Made by a program: the position numbers and the translations under genes. A stretch of 64,000 nucleotides of DNA from Anaerolineales bacterium (lineage in GTDB: Bacteria; Chloroflexota; Anaerolineae; Anaerolineales; UBA11579), in NCBI GenBank assembly GCA_050115475.1, contig JASFQL010000001.1, forward strand, positions 62,554 through 126,553. Reading direction: 5' to 3'. A model generated the notes under the pieces. That model was not told where the DNA came from. It worked only from the letters and a program-made list of their open reading frames with translations, and made no database searches. How positions within the stretch are numbered: the stretch's first letter is position 1; the number at the start of each line of letters is the position of its first letter. Positions 16,827-61,890 of the stretch are shown here, one piece after another.

Positions 16827-16899
16827 GCCGAGATAGCTCAGTTGGTAGAGCATGCGACTGAAAATCGCAGGGTCGACAGTTCAATTCTGTCTCTCGGCA
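16827..16899 (+). tRNA. tRNA-Phe (GAA)
   Basis: Acceptor stem GCCGAGA/TCTCGGC, D-loop AGCTCAGTTGGTAGAGC, anticodon loop CTGAAAA, T-arm GGTTCAATTC-type. No encoded CCA. Confidence 0.9.
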
Positions 16900-16926
16900 C
16901 TCCCGGTGTGATAGAATGGCCGGTAT

Positions 16927-16999
16927 GCGGGCGTAGTTCAGTTGGTAGAACACCTCCTTGCCAAGGAGAAGGTCACGAGTTCGAGTCTCGTCGCCCGCT
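16927..16999 (+). tRNA. tRNA-Gly (GCC)
   Basis: Acceptor stem GCGGGCG/CGCCCGC, anticodon loop TTGCCAA, T-arm GAGTTCGAGTCTC. Closely resembles the E. coli tRNA-Gly(GCC) sequence as I remember it. No encoded CCA. Confidence 0.9.
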
Positions 17000-17076
17000 C
17001 TTTTTCCCCCACAGGCTGGTAGCGAATGGTTTCCCCCCCGAAGGCACTATTCCCTATCAGCCGAATCATCTAAACT

Positions 17077-17147
17077 GGCGACGTGGCCAAGTGGTAAGGC
17101 ATGGGTCTGCAAAACCCTGATCACGGGTTCGAATCCCGTCGTCGCCT
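17077..17147 (+). tRNA. tRNA-Cys (GCA)
   Basis: Acceptor stem GGCGACG/CGTCGCC, anticodon loop CTGCAAA, T-arm GGGTTCGAATCCC. No encoded CCA. Confidence 0.9.
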
Positions 17148-24812: not shown

Positions 24813-27800
24813 TCACCCCTTCATCAACTGCTCCACCCGACTCTCGCCCGTGCTGTAATATTTGGCCTGGGGGTGATGGACGATGATGGCGGCGGTCGAT
24901 TGTTCCGGGACGAGTTGGAATGCGCTGGTCAGGCTCATCCCCAATTTGCTTTCGGCAGGCAAGAGATCGAACACCTTGCGGTGGTCGTCCAACGTTGGGA
25001 TGGCCGGGTAGCCCCACGAATAGCGTTTCCCCTGGCCTTTAGGGATTCCCAACTCCCGCCTGACGTGGCGGTGGAGGTATTCAGCCGCAGCTTCGGCGGT
25101 CTGCACCGCCAGCCCATGCACGAAATACGCCTCGGAATAATCTCCCGCCTGTTCCAACCGGGCAAACCGCTCCGTAGCCTCTTGCCCTACCGTGACCACC
25201 TGGAAGGCGACCACGTCCATGATGCCCGATTCAACCGGGGCGAAATAATCGGCCAGACACAGACGGTCACCGGCGCGCTGGCGCGGGAACGAGAAACGGG
25301 TCGATAATTCAGGCTGGTTTTGTGTGAGAGAATCCGGGTGATACACGACGAGGTCGTCCCCATCCGATTGGGCTGGCCAGAAGCCGTACACCCCTTGAGG
25401 AGCGAGCCACCCCGTCCGGAGTGCTTCTTTCTTCATCTTCCCCAGGCGTACTTCGAATTCAGCCTCCAACTTCTCCCACTCCTCGCCCCTGGCATTCTTC
25501 GCTCCCCAAGAAAGCCGGAAGAGTTCATTTTTATAGAGATGTTCAAAGATGCTTTCTAGTGGCAGCTCTTTCACCACTCGTGCCCCCCACTGCTTGGGTT
25601 GGGGGATGTCTTCAGCTAAAGGCAAAGCCTTCTTTTGCGTAGACCTACCTTTTTTAGTCTTTACTTCCCGTTGGGCTTCATTGGCAGCCTTGTTGTAGAG
25701 TACTTCAAGCAGCGCCCCACGCTTTTGTTCGTCGATGAGCTGTTCGATGGTCTCAAGTCCCTCGAAGGCGTCGCTGCAGTAGAACACGCCCGGTTTGTAG
25801 CGCTCTCCATCTTCGGTGTAGAGGATGCGCCACCCAAACCGCCGGTTGATGGCTGCTCCGCCGATCAATACAGGGAACGCCAATCCGCGGCGGTGCAGTT
25901 CATTGACGATCAGGGGCATCTGTTTGCTCGTGCTCACCAGTAGGGCGCTCAGGCCGATGGCGTCGGCCTTCACCTCTTCCGCTTTACTGATGATTGTCTC
26001 GACCGGAACCTGTTTGCCGAGGTCGTGCACTTCATAACCGTTGTTCGCCAGGATAGTCTTGACGAGGTTCTTGCCGATGTCGTGGACGTCGCCGTAGACG
26101 GTGGCAAGGACGATCACGCCCTTGCTGACGCCTTCGAGCTTCTCCAGGTAATTATCCAGGTGGGCGACGGACTTCTTCATCACCTCGGCGGATTGGAGCA
26201 CGAAGGGGAGGATCAATTCCCCGGCCCCGAACTTGTCGCCAACCTCCTTCATCGCTGGCAGGAGAGTGTCGTTGAGGATATCTACCGCAGCGATATGGTC
26301 ACTGTCCTTATCTTTGCGATTGATAATTTCGTCAATAGCGTCCTCCACACCTTCCTTATGCCGGTGCAGGATGCTCCAATGGAGGCGTTCTTCGGGCGTC
26401 ATCCCCTCTGTGGGATCACTTTGGGTCTCTTCTTCCACCGTGACGTTCTCGTAATATTCGATCACTCGCTGGAGGGCGTCATCCCGGTGGTTGAAGATGA
26501 GGTCTTCCATCAACTGCCGCTCCTCTTTGGGGATTTCTGCATAAGGCTTGATCTTGGCAGCGTGCACGATGGCCATATCCAGCCCGGCTTCCACAGCATG
26601 GTGGAGCATCATCGAGTTGAGTACTAGACGGGCGGCTTTACTCAAGCCAAAAGAGACGTTGCTGACGCCCAGGGAAGTGAATACCCCAGGCAGTTCTGCT
26701 TTGATCTGTTTGATCGCTTCCAATGTGGCGATAGCGGAATCGTTGAACTCGGGGTCGCCGGTGGAGAGCGGAAAGGTGAGCGCGTCGTAGACCAGGGCAT
26801 CGGGTTTAAGGCCAAACTCATCCACAGCAATTTTATAGATGCGTTTGGCGATATCCACTTTGCGCTCTACTGTCTTCGCCATCCCCTCTTCGTCGATGGT
26901 CAGGATCAGCACGGCAGCGTTGTGCTCCTTGGCGAGCCGTAAGACCTTTTCCAGTTTGGGGCGGCCTGCCTCGAGGTGGGTGGAGTTGAGCAAACAGCGT
27001 CCTGGGGCGAGTTTGAGTGCCGCTTCCATCACCTCCGGCTCGGTCGTATCGATCACCAAAGGGACTTCCACGCTCATCGCCAATCGCTTGACCAGTTTCG
27101 ACATCAACCCCATTTCATCCGGATTCTCGGTGACCGCCACAGACACGTCCAGGGCATGCGCGCCGCCCTCGATCTGCTCCCTGGCGACCTCGATCATTGC
27201 ATCGAAATCCTCCGCCAGGAGCAGTTTCTTGAAAACCCGGCTGCCGGTGGCGTTGAGCCGTTCCCCAATTAACAAGGGGCGCGGCTCTTGTTTCATGGGC
27301 GTGGCACGGATGGAAGAAGACAGGTGCGGTTCACTCGCCTCCGGGCGGGGTGGGGCTGGGTGCCCGTGGATCTGGTCGACCAGCAGCTTGAGGTGTACCG
27401 GAGTTGTGCCGCAGCAGCCCCCCACGACGCTGATATTGTGTTTGGTGACGAACTCGACCATTGCCTCGGCATAGGGCTGCGGCTCGAGGGGATAGACCGC
27501 TTCACCGTCCACATTGAGGGGTAAGCCTGCGTTGGGGATGGCCGAGACTGGTAGGGTGGCGTGTTCCCCCAGGTAGCTGATGGGCTGGCGCATGTGTTCC
27601 GGGCCGGTGGAGCAGTTCAAGCCGATGACGTCGATGGGCAGCCCCTCCAGGATGGTGAGAGCCGTGGCGATGTCTGTGCCCAGCAGCATCCGCCCGGAGG
27701 TATCCAGGGTCACCTGGCACTGCACGGGAAGGACTTCTCCGGTATCCACATAAGCCAGCTGAATGCCGCTGATGGCTGCCTTGACTTCCAGGATATCTTG

Positions 27801-28322
27801 GGAAGTCTCGATGAGGAGCACGTCCACGCCCCCATCGATCAAACCGCGGGCCTGCTCGCGGAAGACCTCCACCAGGTCGTCGTAGGTCACGTCGGATAGG
27901 GTCGGGTCGTCCGCCGAGGGGAGTTTGCCGGTTGGCCCCATCGATCCGGCCACGAAGCGCGGGCGCCCTGCCGTGCTGAATTCATCGGCAGCCTGCCGGG
28001 CGATCTGGGCAGCCGCTTTATTGATCTCATAGGTCTGGTCGCCCAGGCCGTATTCACCCAGGGTGATGCGGTTGGCGCGGAAGGTGTTCGTCTCGACCAC
28101 ATCCACGCCGACCTCGAAATAGGAGCGGTGGGCTTTTTCCACCGCCTCGGGGAATGTGACTGCCAGGTAATCGAAACAGCCGTTATACTGCTCCCCCCCG
28201 AAGTGTTCGGCGGTCAGGTCGAACGTCTGGAGCAGGGTGCCGTTGGCGCCATCGTAGATCAAGATGCGTTCGTCTAGCGCATCTAAGAACCTTCGCCTTG
28301 TGTATTTTCTTTGTCTACCCAT
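24813..28322 (-). CDS. metH: Cobalamin-dependent methionine synthase
   Basis: 1169 aa. Hcy-binding module (GGCCGTTP), pterin-binding module, B12-binding DxHxxG (GDVHDIGKN), and a C-terminal AdoMet reactivation domain. Confidence 0.95.
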   Translation of the reverse strand: MGRQRKYTRRRFLDALDERILIYDGANGTLLQTFDLTAEHFGGEQYNGCFDYLAVTFPEAVEKAHRSYFEVGVDVVETNTFRANRITLGEYGLGDQTYEINKAAAQIARQAADEFSTAGRPRFVAGSMGPTGKLPSADDPTLSDVTYDDLVEVFREQARGLIDGGVDVLLIETSQDILEVKAAISGIQLAYVDTGEVLPVQCQVTLDTSGRMLLGTDIATALTILEGLPIDVIGLNCSTGPEHMRQPISYLGEHATLPVSAIPNAGLPLNVDGEAVYPLEPQPYAEAMVEFVTKHNISVVGGCCGTTPVHLKLLVDQIHGHPAPPRPEASEPHLSSSIRATPMKQEPRPLLIGERLNATGSRVFKKLLLAEDFDAMIEVAREQIEGGAHALDVSVAVTENPDEMGLMSKLVKRLAMSVEVPLVIDTTEPEVMEAALKLAPGRCLLNSTHLEAGRPKLEKVLRLAKEHNAAVLILTIDEEGMAKTVERKVDIAKRIYKIAVDEFGLKPDALVYDALTFPLSTGDPEFNDSAIATLEAIKQIKAELPGVFTSLGVSNVSFGLSKAARLVLNSMMLHHAVEAGLDMAIVHAAKIKPYAEIPKEERQLMEDLIFNHRDDALQRVIEYYENVTVEEETQSDPTEGMTPEERLHWSILHRHKEGVEDAIDEIINRKDKDSDHIAAVDILNDTLLPAMKEVGDKFGAGELILPFVLQSAEVMKKSVAHLDNYLEKLEGVSKGVIVLATVYGDVHDIGKNLVKTILANNGYEVHDLGKQVPVETIISKAEEVKADAIGLSALLVSTSKQMPLIVNELHRRGLAFPVLIGGAAINRRFGWRILYTEDGERYKPGVFYCSDAFEGLETIEQLIDEQKRGALLEVLYNKAANEAQREVKTKKGRSTQKKALPLAEDIPQPKQWGARVVKELPLESIFEHLYKNELFRLSWGAKNARGEEWEKLEAEFEVRLGKMKKEALRTGWLAPQGVYGFWPAQSDGDDLVVYHPDSLTQNQPELSTRFSFPRQRAGDRLCLADYFAPVESGIMDVVAFQVVTVGQEATERFARLEQAGDYSEAYFVHGLAVQTAEAAAEYLHRHVRRELGIPKGQGKRYSWGYPAIPTLDDHRKVFDLLPAESKLGMSLTSAFQLVPEQSTAAIIVHHPQAKYYSTGESRVEQLMKG

Positions 28323-28381: not shown

Positions 28382-28402
28382 ATGTTGCAGTTCTGCAGTC
28401 TG

Positions 28403-28500
28403 CTCATCTGCCAGTGTCTACTGCCGGAGTTGGCACCTTCACGCTTGCGTGTGGGTTGCCGAGGTTTCAACGGGCCGGTCCCTCCACCTCTCTGGATGAG
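28403..28500 (-). promoter_or_regulatory. SAM-I (S-box) riboswitch aptamer
   Basis: Minus strand reads CTCATCCAGAGAGGTGGAGGGACCGGCCCGTTGAAACCTCGGCAACC...GGTGCCAACTCCGGCAG...GCAGATGAG. This matches the conserved S-box core (AGAGnGGnGGAGGGAC-GGCCC-TGAAACC-GGCAACC...GGTGC-AA-TCC-GCAG...GATGAG). Confidence 0.85.
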
Positions 28501-28532
28501 TCGTACTCAATCGTTATCCGGATATTTGCGAG

Positions 28533-39412: not shown

Positions 39413-40072
39413 ATGGCAAAAATATTGATAGCAGAAGATGAGCGCGATATTAGAGATTTGATTACTTTTACACTTCGCTTTGCGGGCCATGAAGTGGTGG
39501 CGACATCCAATGGTGAGGAGGCTTACTTTAAAGCTCAAGAAGTCAAGCCCGATTTGGTTTTGATGGATGTCCGTATGCCGCGCATGACCGGTTATGAAGC
39601 CTGTAAGAAAATGAAGGAGAATCCGGATTTACAAGGGATCCCCATCGTTTTCCTCTCGGCAAAAGGGCAAGAAGCAGAAGTTCAAGCTGGGTTAGAGGCG
39701 GGAGCAGTTGAATATATCCTGAAACCCTTTGCGCCAGATCAACTTACGTCACGGATCAGTGTTTTGCTTGAACAACACAAGTCAATCGGCCCTGCTGATG
39801 TGAAGGATGAACCATCTCAAGAAATTACCAGACCGAGAAAAGAACTGAGGAGAATACCGGAAAGACCAACTTATCCGTATAGAGAAGAACGTACTCCGGA
39901 TGGAGAAGGTCGTATTCCGGATGGAGGACGCCGTACGCCGGACGGATTGCGCCATAATCCGCCTGGAGAACGACGCAATCCGGATGGAGGATACCGTGAG
40001 CCGCCTACAGAGCCGGGCAGCTCAATGAGAGGGACTGGCGAACTGGATGAAGATGCCAACGATGTTGGCTAG
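39413..40072 (+). CDS. Single-domain response regulator with a repeat-rich C-terminal tail
   Basis: REC motifs (ILIAEDERDIR, LVLMDVRMPRMTG, ILKPF), then a ~90-aa Pro/Arg/Gly-rich tail. Starts 3 nt after the kinase stop. Confidence 0.85.
   Translation: MAKILIAEDERDIRDLITFTLRFAGHEVVATSNGEEAYFKAQEVKPDLVLMDVRMPRMTGYEACKKMKENPDLQGIPIVFLSAKGQEAEVQAGLEAGAVEYILKPFAPDQLTSRISVLLEQHKSIGPADVKDEPSQEITRPRKELRRIPERPTYPYREERTPDGEGRIPDGGRRTPDGLRHNPPGERRNPDGGYREPPTEPGSSMRGTGELDEDANDVG
39890..40015 (+). repeat. Tandem 21-bp (heptapeptide) repeats inside the response-regulator tail
   Basis: In-frame units RTPDGEG / RIPDGGR / RTPDGLR / HNPPGER / RNPDGGY / REPPTEP. The DNA units start at 39890, 39911, 39932, 39953, 39974 and 39995. 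Confidence 0.85.
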
Positions 40073-44418: not shown

Positions 44419-45807
44419 TCACTTCCGCTTCATCAAATACATCCGTCGTTCGCTTTCCTTGATATCTTCAGAGGTGACGATCTCATAATAGGGTTTGAAG
44501 GCTGCTTCCATACCTGCGAAGCTGTAGTTCGGAAAGATATCTTCGCGGGTTGATAATAAGCGCTGCACCTGCGAGTCGCTCTTGGGGATGAACTCCAGGA
44601 TCAACCAGGGGGATAAACTGGCAAAATACTCGGCGACCATTTCTAGGGGCACGTTGTTTGAAATCGACAGGTGGTGGATCACAGCCAGCCCCATGATGAG
44701 GTCCGGTGTGTTGCGCCCCAACAAGCTGCGCCGCTCCCGGTTGCCCCACCCGATGTCCGGGCTGGGGTTGGTCAGGTCGAGCGCCAGGGGGAGCAGGTTC
44801 GTTTCTTTGTGGGCTTTGATCTCGCGGTAATTCTTTTCGACTGCATCCGTATCTATATCGAATGTTATTGTTGGGATGCCTTTTTCGCTTGCAATCCTGC
44901 TGAATACACCCACATTCCCGCCCAGGTCCCACACCATTTTGGGGTCCGCCTGTTTGACGTACTTCGCCACGAGTTCTTTCTTGTGTTCAGCGGCGGGGAG
45001 CGTGTAGTTTGTATCTTCGTAATATTCTCCCCATTCGGTGCCCGAGAAGTCCAGTTCGAGCTTTTCGGTGGTTCGTTCCAGGCTGTCGATGAGACCCAGC
45101 AGACTGGACTTACTCATCTTGCGGGTCTGGGATACCTTGCCCACGTCTTCGGCAGCGTAGCGTTTTTGGGCGGTGGCATGCAGGTGGATGTGTGACAGCA
45201 AGCCGAAGTTGAAACGCGTACGCCTCGGCAGGAGGCGGCTGGCAAGGTCCAGGGGGACACCGTCGATGTACACCCGCAGAAGCTGGCTTAAACGCACGTC
45301 GTTGTAGGCCATGAGGGTGAGCGGCGCCAGGAAATGCTGGCAGTACTGCCGGTAGGCTACCCAGGGCTGCCCTTCCTGGTAGATTTCAAAGGAGAGGGTG
45401 TCGATGAGGACAGGTTTGGCGTTGTCCAACCGGAATTGGATGTTGAAGTTGCTGCTGTCTTTGAGCGACATGCCGTGTTTGAGTGCCCGTTTCTGGATTT
45501 CCAGGGTGAGAAGGGCGGCATCTTTCAACTGGCTGAAGCACCATTCGTAGGGGTAGGAGATGAAGCACAGTTCTTCCGGCTGGATGACCTTGTAGGCCAA
45601 CTTGGGATCAGGGGGTGAAACATCCACCTCGGTGTGGGAAACGAGCATGTCGGATTTGACGAGGTGGTCGTACAGCCCGGATTCGAGAAGGCGGTCGAAG
45701 TTCTCCTGGTAGACCCGGTTGACCTGTCGGTAGAGTTTCTGGTTTTTGAAGAACAGGAATCCGCTAGGGTCGCGAAAGGATGCAGGCAGTTTGGGGCTAT
45801 TCTTCAT
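44419..45807 (-). CDS. Two-domain SAM-dependent methyltransferase (unassigned N-terminal domain plus class I MTase)
   Basis: Start at the ATG at 45807 (MKNSPKLPASFRDPSGFLFF). C-terminal MTase motif I VWDLGGNVGVFS and AVIHHL. The upstream 64 codons of the track ORF overlap a better small gene in another frame. Confidence 0.7.
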   Translation of the reverse strand: MKNSPKLPASFRDPSGFLFFKNQKLYRQVNRVYQENFDRLLESGLYDHLVKSDMLVSHTEVDVSPPDPKLAYKVIQPEELCFISYPYEWCFSQLKDAALLTLEIQKRALKHGMSLKDSSNFNIQFRLDNAKPVLIDTLSFEIYQEGQPWVAYRQYCQHFLAPLTLMAYNDVRLSQLLRVYIDGVPLDLASRLLPRRTRFNFGLLSHIHLHATAQKRYAAEDVGKVSQTRKMSKSSLLGLIDSLERTTEKLELDFSGTEWGEYYEDTNYTLPAAEHKKELVAKYVKQADPKMVWDLGGNVGVFSRIASEKGIPTITFDIDTDAVEKNYREIKAHKETNLLPLALDLTNPSPDIGWGNRERRSLLGRNTPDLIMGLAVIHHLSISNNVPLEMVAEYFASLSPWLILEFIPKSDSQVQRLLSTREDIFPNYSFAGMEAAFKPYYEIVTSEDIKESERRMYLMKRK

Positions 45808-46027
45808 CTGCGACTTTTTCGTCTTCTGAAGAGCCTTCCCCTTTGTCTTTCCGGAAGAAGCCGGTGATCTTGCCCCAGTAGCTGCGCAGGGCGAAGCCGA
45901 TCCCGACGAGGCTGGCAATGAGTAGTTGGAGGATGAAGCTGCCTGAACCAGGGTCCAGGTAGGCCTGGCCTTTGATGGCAGGGCTGGTGAGGATTTCAAC
46001 CATGATTTCAGGAATATGGACTGGCAT
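45797..46027 (-). CDS. Small membrane protein (hypothetical)
   Basis: 76 aa with one clear TM helix (GSFILQLLIASLVGIGFAL) and an acidic tail. Its stop overlaps the downstream ATG (ATGAAGAATAG), suggesting translational coupling. Confidence 0.5.
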   Translation of the reverse strand: MPVHIPEIMVEILTSPAIKGQAYLDPGSGSFILQLLIASLVGIGFALRSYWGKITGFFRKDKGEGSSEDEKVADEE

Positions 46028-46098
46028 AGAAAATTACTCCTTGATTTGAGGTTTTTCCGGTCAATGATACCCCGATTTGGCTAAGAAAACAACCGGAG

Positions 46099-46135
46099 GA
46101 TTGTTGATTTTAGATTGTTGATTGCTGATTGTTGA
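46099..46135 (+). repeat. Three direct GATTGTTGA repeats at 14-bp spacing
   Basis: Copies start at 46099, 46113 and 46127. They are followed by tandem GGAATTA GGAATTA (46140-46153). Confidence 0.85.
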
Positions 46136-46182
46136 ATGGGGAATTAGGAATTATGGATCGTTCTTTGTGAGTAGAGGGGTAG

Positions 46183-46447
46183 ACCTGTAACCTGTTACGA
46201 TTTGGGGGAAGGGGGTGTTTTACAGGTCTTACAGGTAGGGTACGGGAGGATGATGAATTGTTTACAGGTACTTACAGGTTGTTACAGGTGTTGTGCGTGC
46301 CTTCGGCACGCGCTCGGAGAACGATCCAAGGCGGAGCCTTGGATTCAGGAGAATGAGGTAAGCTCATTCTCCACAACACTGGGTAATAAGAGGGGCTGTC
46401 TCCTTCTCCAGGGGTAGATATGAGGGGTGGGGAATTGCTACCTGTAA
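46183..46447. repeat. Array of TTACAGGT / ACCTGTAA octamers
   Basis: Direct copies at 46220, 46229, 46262, 46272 and 46282. Inverted copies (ACCTGTAA) at 46183 and 46440, plus a near-copy ACCTGTTA at 46190. Confidence 0.85.
46288..46379. ncRNA. Candidate structured element: closing helix enclosing three perfect stem-loops (strand undetermined)
   Basis: P1 GTGTTGTG (46288-95) / CACAACAC (46372-79). H1 CGTGCC/GGCACG (46296-46310). H2 ATCCAAGGC/GCCTTGGAT (46324-46344). H3 GGAGAATGAG/CTCATTCTCC (46348-46372). All pairs are Watson-Crick. Confidence 0.35.
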
Positions 46448-46508
46448 AGTTGTGGGGGTATGTTGATATCCACTGATGAAGTGGTTTGATGGGTGTGATG
46501 TGGGCACA

Positions 46509-47711
46509 CTATTTCAACAGCGAATGAAGCTGCTCGATATCCTCCTGCCATTCCCGGACAATGGCGAGCTGTTCATCGCGCTGATCGGGGTCTTTTACAT
46601 ATCCCTTGGCCATCTCGTGAAGATGTCCATAGTAATCTGCCAGTCGGTCAAGCGGGGCGTGAATCATCCCCAAGGCAGTGGAATCCTGTTCCTCCAAAGC
46701 TGCCTCCAGGCGTTCGAGGAGGCGAAGCCATTCATCCACCGGCAGGGAGGCTTTCTGGCGGAAGGTACGGGTGAGCCACTGCCGCTCAAAGACGGAGAGC
46801 TCCTGCCAGGCCGCGGATTGTTCGGCAAGCGTGGTGCGCGCGGACTGACACAGCACCAGGGCCTGTTCGAATTGTTCAGGAGACAGTGAACGTCCTCCTG
46901 CTGCCTGCCCCGATGCAGACAGATCGATGCCAGCGTCGGCTAAGGCCTGCGTGGATGAAATCTCCTGGCCGCGGTAGCGCGGCGCCAGGGCCACTGCGGC
47001 GGCGAAACCGGCCCCGGCTGCCTCTATCGAGATCGTGTACGGCTTGACGACTTCGAACATTTCCTCCTCGGATTTGCCCATCAGGGCGGCAAGTTTGGGG
47101 ATAGAGGAAAGCGCGGTTTGTGTGGGGACGAATCCCGGCCCAATGGTGAAGGCTGAAACTGCGGTGTTTTCAAATTCCTCACTGAGTGTGGCGCCAAGAT
47201 GAACCTGCGCGGCCTTGAAGGACTCGTAGGCCCCCATATAGGCGCCCCCTGTGGAAGACACACAGACGAACACTCCCCAATCCCGGGTGAGCATCCCGGG
47301 GATGAAGGCGCGGGCGAGCAAAACTGGCCCACGCAGGTTGACACGGTAGCTGGCATCCCAGGCTTCGATGTCCACGTCTTTCACCGCGCCCAACGTGGCG
47401 ACGGTGGCGTTGTTGAGGACGATGTCCACCCCCCCGAAGGTTTTCTGTGCCCGGCGCGCCAGTTTTTTCACGCTGCCCTCATCGCCGACGTCGGTCTTGA
47501 CGAATAAGGCCGCACCAGGGTCGAACTCCTGATTAAGTTGTTGGGCGGCCTGCCGGCCAGTTTTCGAATTGATCTCGGCAATGACGACTTTGCACCCCAG
47601 CCAGAGCAGGGAACGGGCCGCTTCGTAGCCAATGCCGCCGCCTGCCCCGGTAATAAGGGCGATCTTGCCCGCCAATGATCGGCGGGTGAGTTTACCTGTT
47701 TCGATCAGCAT
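46509..47711 (-). CDS. SDR-family oxidoreductase with a ~150-aa C-terminal helical extension
   Basis: TGAGGGIG cofactor motif, YxxxK-type region (YESFKAAQ). ATG at 47711 is preceded by GAGGAGAA. Confidence 0.8.
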   Translation of the reverse strand: MLIETGKLTRRSLAGKIALITGAGGGIGYEAARSLLWLGCKVVIAEINSKTGRQAAQQLNQEFDPGAALFVKTDVGDEGSVKKLARRAQKTFGGVDIVLNNATVATLGAVKDVDIEAWDASYRVNLRGPVLLARAFIPGMLTRDWGVFVCVSSTGGAYMGAYESFKAAQVHLGATLSEEFENTAVSAFTIGPGFVPTQTALSSIPKLAALMGKSEEEMFEVVKPYTISIEAAGAGFAAAVALAPRYRGQEISSTQALADAGIDLSASGQAAGGRSLSPEQFEQALVLCQSARTTLAEQSAAWQELSVFERQWLTRTFRQKASLPVDEWLRLLERLEAALEEQDSTALGMIHAPLDRLADYYGHLHEMAKGYVKDPDQRDEQLAIVREWQEDIEQLHSLLK

Positions 47712-48004
47712 GTGTGTTTTCTCCTCGTGACGGTGAAGTGAACCCAATTAAGTTTAAGATGGCATCTGGATGATACCGAAGAATCAGACAAGGTTGTAGA
47801 AAGAAAAGACCGTGAGAGAGATTCTTCGCTCCCTTCGGTCGCTCAGAATGACAATAGAAAAGGTGGTCGTTTAGAATGATATGCTGGTATTTCATCACTT
47901 TCTTCTCTAAGATCAAACTTGGATTCACTTTACTATACTCAACTATGAGTTTATCAGAAACATATCGTCAGACAAGGGGGAAGAGACGGGAAGTAATCAG
48001 TTGA

Positions 48005-59839: not shown

Positions 59840-59868
59840 TTGACAAAATTCCTCGTTTCCTGTAATAT
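59840..59868 (+). promoter_or_regulatory. Near-consensus sigma70 promoter
   Basis: TTGACA (59840-59845), 17-nt spacer, TAATAT (59863-59868). Confidence 0.5.
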
Positions 59869-59907
59869 GTCGGCTGTCTACATATGTCGGAAGACGACAT
59901 ATGTAGA
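59865..59907. promoter_or_regulatory. Operator-like repeat set / 5' hairpin overlapping the -10 and the predicted transcription start
   Basis: Perfect 13-bp inverted repeat TCTACATATGTCG (59877-59889) / CGACATATGTAGA (59895-59907) with a 5-nt spacer. A third direct half-site ATATGTCGG at 59865-59873 overlaps the -10. Confidence 0.7.
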
Positions 59908-60048: not shown

Positions 60049-61890
60049 ATGATGATGAAAGCTAAAAATAAGGTTCAAAACAGCGAAAATATGCAGGCTG
60101 CTAAGATTTTGTTTTTGATAATGCTACCTGTTTTCTATTTGGTTATTTTTAGTCTGTCTATGTCGTTATCGAAAAATGGCCTTAGAGGAGATAGTCTGAA
60201 CTCAAGAATGGATGTGGGTAAGGAAACCCTAATAGTTTCCAATCAATCTGACCCTTACTATGGATTGGCCCAAAAAATTGCGTACGAAGAAAATCTTGAG
60301 GTTGTTGAAAACCTCACTGAAGCATTGGGGTTCAATCCAAAGTATATCTTGTTGGTAGCTTCACCTGAGAATTTTACTGAGGAGAGATTGCTGAGTATTG
60401 GTTCTTCTTATAAGCGTATGGATTACTATCCTGCCTTGGGCATTATTTCAGGAAGCAGTTTAGAAAATGCCGAACAATTATGGAGGAATGGAAAATCAGT
60501 TCATTCAGGCGAGAATTACTTTGGCGGGGATGTTGAAAAAGGACAATTGATTGAAGAACCAGCAATCTATAACATTGACGAGGGTTACAATGGAAAGATA
60601 GAACTCAATAAAGACAATCTATCTGCTATATTGCTACAAACTGAATATTTTTACTGGTCTCGTCATGTTTCTGAAGACAAGTGGTTTTGGAATACTGAAT
60701 CGAAAGATTACGGCAAAGATGATCAGTATTTTGCAGAAGATATTCCAAAGCTGAATTCAATTGTGATTTACACACCAAGTTGCGGCTCATTTCAGCCGTG
60801 GACAGATGATTCAATTTCTCTGGGCTTTGTCGATAAAGGCGCGGCTGCGTATGTTGGGCATGTTCGCAGTCCTATTTCCAATAGTTTTTTTATAAGGCAC
60901 AGGTTAGCTGTTCCAGGTATCTATTCCTGGGATGAGTTCCCTTTAGGGATCGCAGCGCAAATTCAGAATAAAGAAACTGCAAATATGGTTTACAACACAC
61001 CTTTGTTTTTTATGTTGGGGGATCCGCGAATATATTTATTAGAAGACAAGCCTTATCAAATCAACTCTGACAGGGTGAACAATATTGGGAGGAGGGTAAT
61101 TACGGGAGAGTCAAATGAGAGAGGTATTCTGGCTATAAAAATTGAGGGTGGGGCTGCGTATGAGTATTTGAAAACGAGTACCACATCTGTTAGCGATAAT
61201 GATCCTTTCTATAATAATGATCTACAAATGTTAAATTTGGGCGCAGATAAGTATATTCTGTACTTCCACACAGGTGGAGATTTTCGGATTGAACTTTTCA
61301 CGGATACGCCCATCATATGGAAATTGACTGATCCTATTGTCGATGTTTTTGATTATTCCTGGATAGCAATTGGCGTCGTACAAAGTCCATTCTCTCTGAT
61401 TTTATTGGTGATATTTACCGCTGTTGTAATTTATAAAATTATTCGTAAAAAAACACCTATCAGGAATTACCGAGTTTTATTTCTGGCGGGGCTTCTCTAC
61501 GCTCTCGTGCGACTTATTTATCTCCTGACACGGATAGGCAGCTACACTGTCAGCGCCAGCATAGTCGAAATGACAATTTTTGAGATTATTCTTGGTTTTG
61601 TAGGCGTGTTTTCCAGCACAGCATCTGGATTGGTGATGATGAGAACCAGTAAAAAAACGATCGGTAAGGTCATTGGGATGATTTTAGCTCTTTTACCCCA
61701 ACTTTTACTTACCGGGTTTTATTTCGCTAATATCACCCTTACCAATATTATTATGAGGAACAATACAGCAAACCTTTGGCTTTGGAACTATAAAGCATTT
61801 TGGATGCCACTTGGTGTGCTGCTGTTTGAAGCACTCATCATGTTTGCCTTGTATAGGATTTCAATTTTCAGGCAGAGGACTGCCATATAG
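60049..61890 (+). CDS. Hypothetical membrane protein: N-terminal TM, large extracytoplasmic domain, C-terminal multi-TM region
   Basis: 613-aa AT-rich gene. The order of ILLVASPENF ... SRHVSEDKW ... IYTPSCGSF ... GAAAYVGH ... MLGDP resembles caspase-fold C25-type peptidases (from memory, weak). There are about 5 C-terminal TM helices. Confidence 0.5.
   Translation: MMMKAKNKVQNSENMQAAKILFLIMLPVFYLVIFSLSMSLSKNGLRGDSLNSRMDVGKETLIVSNQSDPYYGLAQKIAYEENLEVVENLTEALGFNPKYILLVASPENFTEERLLSIGSSYKRMDYYPALGIISGSSLENAEQLWRNGKSVHSGENYFGGDVEKGQLIEEPAIYNIDEGYNGKIELNKDNLSAILLQTEYFYWSRHVSEDKWFWNTESKDYGKDDQYFAEDIPKLNSIVIYTPSCGSFQPWTDDSISLGFVDKGAAAYVGHVRSPISNSFFIRHRLAVPGIYSWDEFPLGIAAQIQNKETANMVYNTPLFFMLGDPRIYLLEDKPYQINSDRVNNIGRRVITGESNERGILAIKIEGGAAYEYLKTSTTSVSDNDPFYNNDLQMLNLGADKYILYFHTGGDFRIELFTDTPIIWKLTDPIVDVFDYSWIAIGVVQSPFSLILLVIFTAVVIYKIIRKKTPIRNYRVLFLAGLLYALVRLIYLLTRIGSYTVSASIVEMTIFEIILGFVGVFSSTASGLVMMRTSKKTIGKVIGMILALLPQLLLTGFYFANITLTNIIMRNNTANLWLWNYKAFWMPLGVLLFEALIMFALYRISIFRQRTAI

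Follow-up and report, generated by a model that had tools for sequence, protein, structure and literature searches.

A repeat-packed intergenic spacer with lineage-specific words upstream of a methyltransferase-like operon in Anaerolineales

Short repeats packed into non-coding prokaryotic DNA are known from several described systems. Bacterial micro- and minisatellites (simple sequence repeats and variable-number tandem repeats, SSR/VNTR) include tandem non-coding units of 7–10 bp, whose copy number varies between strains and which are homogenised within lineages (PMC6749651). Cyanobacterial short tandemly repeated repetitive sequences (STRR) are intergenic, hairpin-capable 7-bp units of a filamentous-bacterial group, dispersed at many loci, for which a role in transcript stability has been proposed (PMC2670836). 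The iterons of plasmids, phages and P4-like elements are repeated in direct orientation at intervals of about one helical turn, have inverted copies near them, and differ in word specificity between close relatives. On plasmid pSM19035, runs of four or more adjoining 7-bp units, located at a promoter or immediately upstream of it, form operators and parS sites for the ribbon-helix-helix proteins omega/ParB (PMC9499535). At the RNA level, Rho utilization (rut) sites are described by stretches of 78 nt with C/G above 1 and by a C spacing of 11–13 nt (PMC6407284). Here, we analyze a 481-bp spacer (positions 46028–46508) in a 64 kb stretch, hereafter the window, of a metagenome-assembled genome (MAG) of Anaerolineales (Chloroflexota). 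It is bounded by an SDR gene on one side and by the promoter of an operon for a 76-aa protein and a methyltransferase-like protein on the other.

Judged from the DNA of this locus and its relatives, we give an even chance to the reading that the spacer is a cluster of short tandem repeats, with units of 10 bp and 7 bp, and of local inverted duplications, which is restricted to certain lineages, evolves fast and resembles in kind a bacterial micro- or minisatellite or a cyanobacterial STRR. Unlike SSR/VNTR loci, several arrays, inverted copies and hairpins are packed here into one spacer of 480 bp, and invariant cores are combined with variable linkers. Heptanucleotide units in tandem (nine, 46095–46157) are shared with STRR, as are the intergenic position, the hairpin capacity and a filamentous-bacterial group; unlike the dispersed STRR, the spacer has no second copy in 64 kb, its host belongs to the Chloroflexota and its main arrays consist of 10-bp units. 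With iterons, the locus has in common tandem repeats near helical phase (3 + 2 units at 10 and 9 bp) and inverted copies close by, and its octamer forms arrays beside helicase/primase genes elsewhere. It differs from them in its chromosomal, syntenic context, in units of 8 nt plus linker and in a polymorphic copy number; it lacks a cognate initiator gene and an adjacent primase or helicase gene, and neither an AT-rich unwinding element nor a DnaA box was recognised. At least four contiguous heptads at a promoter recall pSM19035, but the heptads are poorly conserved, the locus is chromosomal and the operon contains no ribbon-helix-helix or ParA/ParB gene. From sequence alone, the spacer would also give a long C>G-skewed RNA with hairpins, in which C/G exceeds 1 over windows of 78 nt or more and cytosines recur at regular intervals, between co-directional genes with no intrinsic terminator, as in rut regions; known rut sites, however, are not made of tandem words, and here the arrays stay with the downstream gene.

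Repeat words within the spacer

The octamer TTACAGGT/ACCTGTAA matches eight times in the window, to which searches of this genome for further copies of the octamer and the spacer were confined, and seven of the eight matches fall inside 46183–46447. Shuffled sequence gives an expectation of 1.2 and a maximum of 4, and 0 of 100 shuffles reached 8. Spacings between copies are 9, 33, 10 and 10 bp (repeat finder and Tandem Repeats Finder, TRF), and the one occurrence outside the gap is coding. The word GATTGTTGA is found three times at 14-bp spacing (46099, 46113 and 46127; four copies in the whole window versus 0.8 expected), and two tandem copies of GGAATTA stand at 46140 and 46147. The gap also contains three perfect hairpins (46295–46311, 46324–46344 and 46348–46372), and a last octamer, opposite in orientation to the arrays, reads ACCTGTAA on the plus strand at 46440–46447. 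All repeat words listed in the original prediction were thereby recovered at the positions it gave, far above chance, and its description of direct copies bracketed by inverted copies was borne out. It had further proposed a spacing of one helical turn: the tandem copies are real, but phasing is not strictly one turn, the array spacing being 9 or 10 bp.

By local repeat content, the gap is the top outlier of the window, with 74 repeated 7-mer positions per 300 bp versus 18 ± 8, and it ranks first both in a k-mer clustering scan and in a sliding repeat-density scan. Elsewhere in the window, intergenic DNA is AT-rich and plain. As in satellite-like SSR/VNTR loci, short units follow each other head to tail in non-coding DNA above chance. 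The clustering expected of the octamer was thus seen within the gap, far above chance, and no cluster was found elsewhere in the 64 kb; neither the octamer cluster nor any other spacer segment has a second copy in the remaining 63 kb. The arrays are present in four independent assemblies (L001–L004), which rules out an assembly artefact. The claim that the gap holds no credible open reading frame (ORF) also proved correct. A 71-aa plus-strand ORF (46202–46417) is frameshifted in strain assembly L002 by a 29-bp indel and absent from sister lineages, and coding potential was rejected because neither this ORF nor one of 47 aa on the minus strand is conserved.

Read in operon order, i.e., on the minus strand, the spacer begins with a distal tract (46380–46508) that is C-rich and G-poor on the sense strand (C 38%, G 11.6%) and for which the sister lineage L058 has no homologous sequence. 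A three-hairpin block of 92 nt follows (46288–46379). Its hairpins are the inverted repeats I6, I10 and I23, and an outer stem of 8 bp (46288–46295/46372–46379) closes it into a four-way junction, with a predicted fold of −52 kcal/mol on the minus strand (z −8.4) and −58 kcal/mol on the plus strand (z −7.9). The middle hairpin is kept in a second sister lineage, L144, with a compensatory G:C to A:T double change; the whole block is missing in L058. Array 1 (46262–46289, minus strand) comprises three ACCTGTAA units at a 10-bp period with variable 2-nt linkers, and array 2 (46220–46236, minus strand) two such units at 9 bp. Between the arrays lies a conserved non-repeat island, CCTCCCGTACCCT (46237–46249, minus strand), which is also found in L058 (twice) and in L144. 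The last array unit forms a hairpin (46181–46229, minus strand) with a C-rich 29-nt loop and inverted copies, which on the plus strand read ACCTGTAA at 46183 and ACCTGTTAC at 46190; its arms AGACCTGTAA/TTACAGGTCT constitute inverted repeat I5 (10 nt, 100% complementary), with an RNA fold of −14.3 kcal/mol (z = −2.7). A perfect long-range inverted repeat of 11 nt, I2, joins the arm TGGATCGTTCT (46154–46164) to its partner AGAACGATCCA (46318–46328) beside the middle hairpin, and the motif GAACGATCC at the former arm is kept in sister lineages.

The promoter-proximal part is built of 7-bp units. Nine contiguous heptads make up a tract of 63 bp (46095–46157, minus strand), which on the sense strand reads TCCATAA, TTCCTAA, TTCCCCA, TTCAACA, ATCAGCA, ATCAACA, ATCTAAA, ATCAACA and ATCCTCC; the three GATTGTTGA copies and the two GGAATTA copies are parts of this single periodic tract, for which TRF reports a GATTGTT array of period 7 with 5.3 copies (lag-7 autocorrelation 0.67). 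The tract abuts a conserved, sigma-70-like block GGTTGTTTTCT-N-GGGGTATCATTGACC (46059–46094, minus strand), with a putative −35 TTGTTT (46087–46092), a 17-nt spacer and a putative −10 TATCAT (46064–46069), and we infer that this block acts as the promoter. A Shine-Dalgarno sequence, AAGGAG (46037–46042, minus strand), stands 9 nt ahead of the ATG at 46025–46027. A scan for an extra promoter gave only a weak promoter-like match within the heptads. No intrinsic terminator was found in 46028–46508 on either strand, with no hairpin followed by a T-run or U-tract, and the view that the gap is more than a terminator plus promoter can be kept. On the plus strand, antisense to the genes, many G4–G5 runs occur between 46137 and 46460 (e.g., GGGGTAGATATGAGGGGTGGGGAATTG...GGGGG at 46411–46458), which confer G-quadruplex potential on that strand.

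Turnover of the repeat words among strains and lineages

The comparison covers six close lineages, several of them represented by short metagenomic contigs (that of L145 has only 132 bp upstream). In five lineages beyond that of the window, the methyltransferase is 91–94% identical to the window's (87.5–88% at the nucleotide level), and those with enough upstream sequence possess a long spacer of the same design built of different repeat words. The window, L058 and L144 share one order: array, island CC(T)CCCGTACCCT, array, C-rich loop, inverted unit, GAACGATCC, heptads and promoter. The words at homologous positions are ACCTGTAA in the window, CCTGTTGA in L058, GGTGTAAC in L144 and CATCTGTG in L141 and L143, that is, four cores across five lineages, alike within and different between them, as in the concerted evolution of SSR/VNTR loci. 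An alignment of the gap among relatives, which the original prediction had proposed as a check, hence finds the layout conserved in sisters, but not the repeated word.

In L058, ACCTGTTGAC is repeated about 14 times over three blocks split by the shared island, with a higher-order repeat of 67 bp and a gradient of units, ACCTGTTAC > ACCTGTTTAC > ACCTGTTGAC; a C-rich loop and TCAACAGGT come after the blocks. In L144, GGTGTAAC plus 2 nt is present in 3 + 3 copies, followed by a C-rich loop and CGTTACACC, and the units next to the island still read ACCTGTAAC, the word of the window. L141 and L143 harbor three copies of CATCTGTGTY at a 10-bp spacing, along with arrays of 8 bp and 7 bp. The 10-bp array period is strict in L058 and L144 and is also seen in L141 and L143. 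Homologous hairpin stems are lineage-specific as well (ACCTGTTGA/TCAACAGGT in L058, GGTGTAACG/CGTTACACC in L144), and the inverted copies of three lineages each match, as reverse complement, the derived unit of their own lineage. For the first hairpin of the window, the 3' arm has a homologue in L144 and the 5' arm has none, and AGAACGATCCA occurs both ways round. Over the 70 nt that precede the −35 block, the lag-7 autocorrelation amounts to 0.67 in the window, 0.43–0.48 in five sisters and 0.29–0.35 in the more distant L059/L060; the heptad sequence itself is poorly conserved, mainly as AATC/GATC in fixed register.

Copy number differs within the species. In L002, 97% identical overall, array 2 has five units versus two in the window, a gain of 29 bp (three units), and apart from these the spacer differs at 3 of 481 positions; variation between strains (2 versus 5 units) is what SSR/VNTR loci display. 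In this one strain pair, the divergence of the spacer (0.6%) equals that of the downstream genes. Along the same alignment, divergence is 2.9% in the 3' part of the SDR gene (46509–47062), mostly at third codon positions, and 0.6% over spacer plus downstream genes (45091–46508), a drop that is suggestive of a recombination boundary close to the stop codon of the SDR gene. An invertible segment is unsupported: perfect inverted repeats of 10–11 nt (I2, I3) flank the arrays, but all four assemblies have the same orientation. The methyltransferase genes of L144 and L145 are 100% identical (1389 nt), and their spacers differ wholly from the −35 block outward, with ATCAnCA heptads and GGTGTAAC arrays in L144 (1–460) and RATYCCY heptads and an L058-like CCTGTTGA unit in L145 (1–135). 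Recombination swapping the spacer, or a de Bruijn-graph (k-mer) chimera across the shared 45-nt block, could account for this difference.

In the more distant relatives covered here the arrays are absent. The promoter block is common to the six close lineages and L059, L060, L062 and L063; in these four, the upstream regions (L059 at 86% and L060 at 76% identity) are 83–107 bp long or otherwise unrepetitive and carry no arrays. The gene pair is kept in L059, L060 and 80 further relatives, with the promoter block in the closest ones; these 80 loci came from a metagenome scan with the 76-aa protein, which gave relatives at ≤70% identity, none with an array. Since relatives keep gene pair and promoter without arrays, the arrays are not needed for the operon. 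SDR relatives at 78–86% identity have other downstream genes and no arrays, and the spacer therefore does not travel with the SDR gene. Instead it stays with the downstream operon, since L143 has lost the SDR gene, with a degraded DUF2238 gene directly upstream of the arrays, yet retains them. The SDR gene is absent from L143 (2254–2497) and L141 (~2512–2556) alike, and the degraded DUF2238 appears there as two tblastn fragments in different frames.

Lineage-wise replacement of the unit, old variants at the edges, higher-order repeats, copy-number polymorphism and absence in relatives add up to a pattern of concerted evolution. We infer slippage and template switching as the mechanism, with no protein that binds the words specifically. 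Units would grow and shrink in number and become homogenised by replication slippage or unequal exchange. Template switching in quasi-palindromes, an established route to keeping inverted repeats perfect, would write the current unit onto the nearby inverted copy, preserve the hairpin-capable inverted repeat and generate extra hairpins; it would explain both an inverted copy that follows the array word and a uniform core without uniform linkers. The words would then be historical accidents, not recognition sites held for a conserved trans-acting factor, and the effect on the cell would be generic, namely a long C-rich, G-poor and partly hairpinned spacer that parts the upstream gene from the promoter. 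Unrelated intergenic satellites exist at other Anaerolineae loci (L055, 12060–12270; L052, 12180–12330); their units are C-rich and of the CCCCGAAC/CCGCA type, or read GGCAGGATG and come with a repeat of roughly 50 bp that holds a palindrome. In a published satellite table, Chloroflexus aurantiacus tops the bacterial part with 76 satellites, and the phylum is satellite-rich (PMC6749651). Together, these loci and this count make satellites appear an ordinary property of the group.

Several observations weigh against fast-evolving satellite-like DNA. In the lineage of the window, all 8 tandem units and the 2 inverted copies hold a perfect 8-nt core, and the linkers around this invariant core vary, being 1–2 nt long (CA, GT, G, AG, GC, G). 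An invariant core with variable linkers is the pattern expected of a recognised word, and uniform neutral decay does not give perfect cores with differing linkers, although template switching against an inverted copy of 8–10 nt could yield them. The heptad tract ends at the −35 block in every one of the six lineages, as an operator would. A spacer of 300–450 bp with the same periodicities persists in six lineages, and useless DNA is usually lost by bacteria. The sense strand has a C/G ratio of 2.55 over 415 nt here and of 1.7–2.6 in five long-spacer lineages, versus 0.8–1.5 in other spacers of the window, and in 78-nt windows the ratio has a median of 2.4, within the top 1% of the window, and a peak of 6.75, within the top 0.1%; a sense strand so consistently C-rich and G-poor suggests that one strand is under constraint, for instance as RNA. 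Invariant cores, a persistent spacer and C/G skew keep explanations by a DNA-binding protein and by RNA alive. If the satellite-like reading holds, the locus would be a clean natural case of concerted evolution of a prokaryotic satellite in related uncultured Anaerolineales, of use in strain typing and in studies of slippage and template switching, and would reveal no new regulatory system. It would add a further example of known prokaryotic short tandem repeats, with an unusually clear record of concerted evolution.

DNA-binding, RNA and mobile-element explanations

The original prediction interpreted the repeats as cooperative-binding or iteron-like sites. Recurrence of the layout in sisters speaks for this idea. 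As a conserved binding-site or iteron array, however, it fails on several counts: the word changes among lineages with 91–94% identical methyltransferases, copy number varies, relatives keep the promoter without the array, and no cognate gene is found within about 10 kb. What survives is an upstream nucleoprotein operator, possible though on balance unlikely, in which a candidate protein would bind the phased 8-bp cores and the inverted copy cooperatively, and the heptads would serve as an operator at the −35. The specificity of this protein would have to co-evolve with the word, as with iterons and their initiators or plasmid centromere repeats and their binding protein. Cores that are invariant between variable linkers fit such an operator, as do an inverted copy that follows the lineage word in three lineages, a 10-bp period in five and heptads beside the −35 in six. 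At least four contiguous heptads are, moreover, a proven ParB binding architecture on plasmid pSM19035 (PMC9499535), and 9-bp arrays of the octamer stand between helicase and primase genes of mobile elements elsewhere. It is harder to reconcile with words that differ where the flanking protein is 91–94% identical, with polymorphic copy number and with mixed 9- and 10-bp spacing. The arrays sit about 130–200 bp upstream of the −35, relatives without arrays use the same promoter, the 64 kb contain no further site, no cognate gene is nearby, and the 76-aa product is hydrophobic without a DNA-binding domain match. Should the cores prove to be recognised, the locus would be a chromosomal promoter with a rapidly re-specifying operator, so far a matter mainly of plasmids and phages.

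An RNA element is another candidate that we consider improbable. Transcription from the upstream gene would run into the spacer, whose RNA, rich in regularly spaced C and poor in G, would serve as a Rho loading (rut) zone. The stable hairpins would act as pause or 3'-end-protecting structures, and zone and hairpins together would insulate the downstream promoter from read-through; in a variant, the repeat-bearing RNA would titrate an RNA-binding protein. The strand bias described above (sense C/G 2.55, 78-nt windows to 6.75) is common to all lineages and favors such a role, and CC recurs every 9–10 nt in the arrays. Measured against the rut rules, C exceeds G as it should, and the C spacing of 9–10 nt is just under 11–13 nt (PMC6407284). 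Co-directional flanking genes with no intrinsic terminator between them, a very stable hairpin block and the compensatory change in one hairpin agree with an RNA function too. Retention of the arrays with the downstream operon where the upstream SDR gene is lost (L143) argues against it, and so do array units that are G-rich on the sense strand in L144, the missing hairpin block in L058 and the fact that rut sites do not require repeated words. A search of the gap against Rfam 15 gave no match at gathering score; the best sub-threshold hit was ftsZ-DE, with 22.7 bits versus a cutoff of 72.2.

Somewhat more doubtful again is a spacer acting as a functional control module whose word drifts. Such a module would work either through a co-evolving chromosomal DNA-binding protein or through a multi-register hairpin, in which one inverted unit pairs with any of n direct units and the number of copies sets the level of read-through or of promoter output. 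Both versions, if true, would explain invariant cores, variable linkers, an inverted copy that tracks the word in three lineages and heptads that always end at the −35.

We give next to no credence to an origin or transfer relic, or a satellite, of a mobile element, with the repeats as P4-like iterons or as a clt-like site for an FtsK/TraB translocase. The idea draws on a scan of genome contigs for three octamers, which gave 45 loci, mostly coding 9-bp repeats or mobile-element arrays; a viral-contig octamer scan gave 37 loci, all unrelated. In the Chloroflexota contigs L028 (2255–2280) and L030 (939–964), 9-bp arrays of ACCTGTAAC with inverted copies lie between genes for an AAA_25/DnaB-like helicase and a CHC2/Toprim primase, and in L020 (2483–2508) and L034 (1478–1503), both from Proteobacteria, such arrays stand beside Toprim/DUF5906/VapE genes; all four look like origin iterons of integrated mobile elements. 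In L009 (1600–1850, Ardenticatenaceae), a 10-bp array of five ACCTGTAA units follows directly after an FtsK/SpoIIIE-family gene, together with inverted copies and a ATCCGTGACA-like second array, an arrangement that we take to be similar to the clt/TraB recognition repeats of actinomycete conjugative plasmids. All of these matches were, however, picked by the search pattern itself. At the locus, no integrase, primase, helicase or FtsK gene is present within about 10 kb on either side, and the flanking genes are chromosomal and syntenic in sister lineages.

Further candidates were rejected. A miniature inverted-repeat transposable element (MITE) or other insertion could be mimicked by the direct ACCTGTAA pair, which resembles a target duplication; terminal inverted repeats are, however, lacking from the segment between the two copies, and sister lineages carry orthologous arrays. 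Repetitive extragenic palindromes (REP), bacterial interspersed mosaic elements (BIME) and MITEs were likewise dismissed, with no other copy in the window. A chromosomal replication origin finds no DnaA-box cluster here, only one imperfect box-like GATATCCAC, and its neighbours are not origin-typical.

Flanking genes and further features of the window

Both genes that flank the spacer are encoded on the minus strand. Upstream, an SDR-family oxidoreductase of 400 aa (46509–47711; Pfam adh_short, E = 3.6e-40) bounds the spacer with its stop codon at 46509–46511, and an identical NCBI protein is annotated from an Anaerolineales MAG. Downstream, the small protein of 76 aa (45797–46027, minus strand) contains a hydrophobic segment and has no Pfam match, hence no DNA-binding domain match; its gene overlaps the start of that for the methyltransferase-like protein (44419–45807, minus strand; 462 aa, weak Methyltransf_23 match). 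The latter has >8000 homologues and is always paired with the 76-aa gene, and the pair is kept in L058–L060 and L141–L145. The neighborhood comprises genes for the SDR protein, the 76-aa membrane-like protein, the methyltransferase, ArsP, DUF1980, DUF2238, an HD-domain protein and PLD. By Pfam, no gene for a replication initiator, primase, helicase, partition protein, integrase, FtsK, ribbon-helix-helix protein or obvious DNA-binding protein occurs within about 10 kb.

Other repeats and signals were noted along the way. A palindromic element, TTCGCTCCCTTCGGTCGCTCAGAATGAC, lies at 47790–47870, and a comparable one, GGCGCAGCATGCTGCGCC, at 40–75 of L144, where an ORF is spuriously called across it; both resemble REP-like sequences, which we assume to be common in environmental Chloroflexota genomes. 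At 59840–59905, a promoter-like TTGACA...TAATAT site precedes an operator-like palindromic pair, ACATATGTCG/CGACATATGT (TRF unit 17 bp, 2.4 copies), upstream of a 613-aa ORF that starts at 60049. A SAM riboswitch (84.7 bits; 28401–28502, minus strand) is found just upstream of a 1169-aa ORF (24813–28322), and three tRNA genes cluster at 16827–17147 on the plus strand. Finally, a 21-bp tandem repeat at 39874–39989 (4.8 copies, 69% matches) inside a 219-aa ORF (39413–40072) probably encodes a 7-residue protein repeat.

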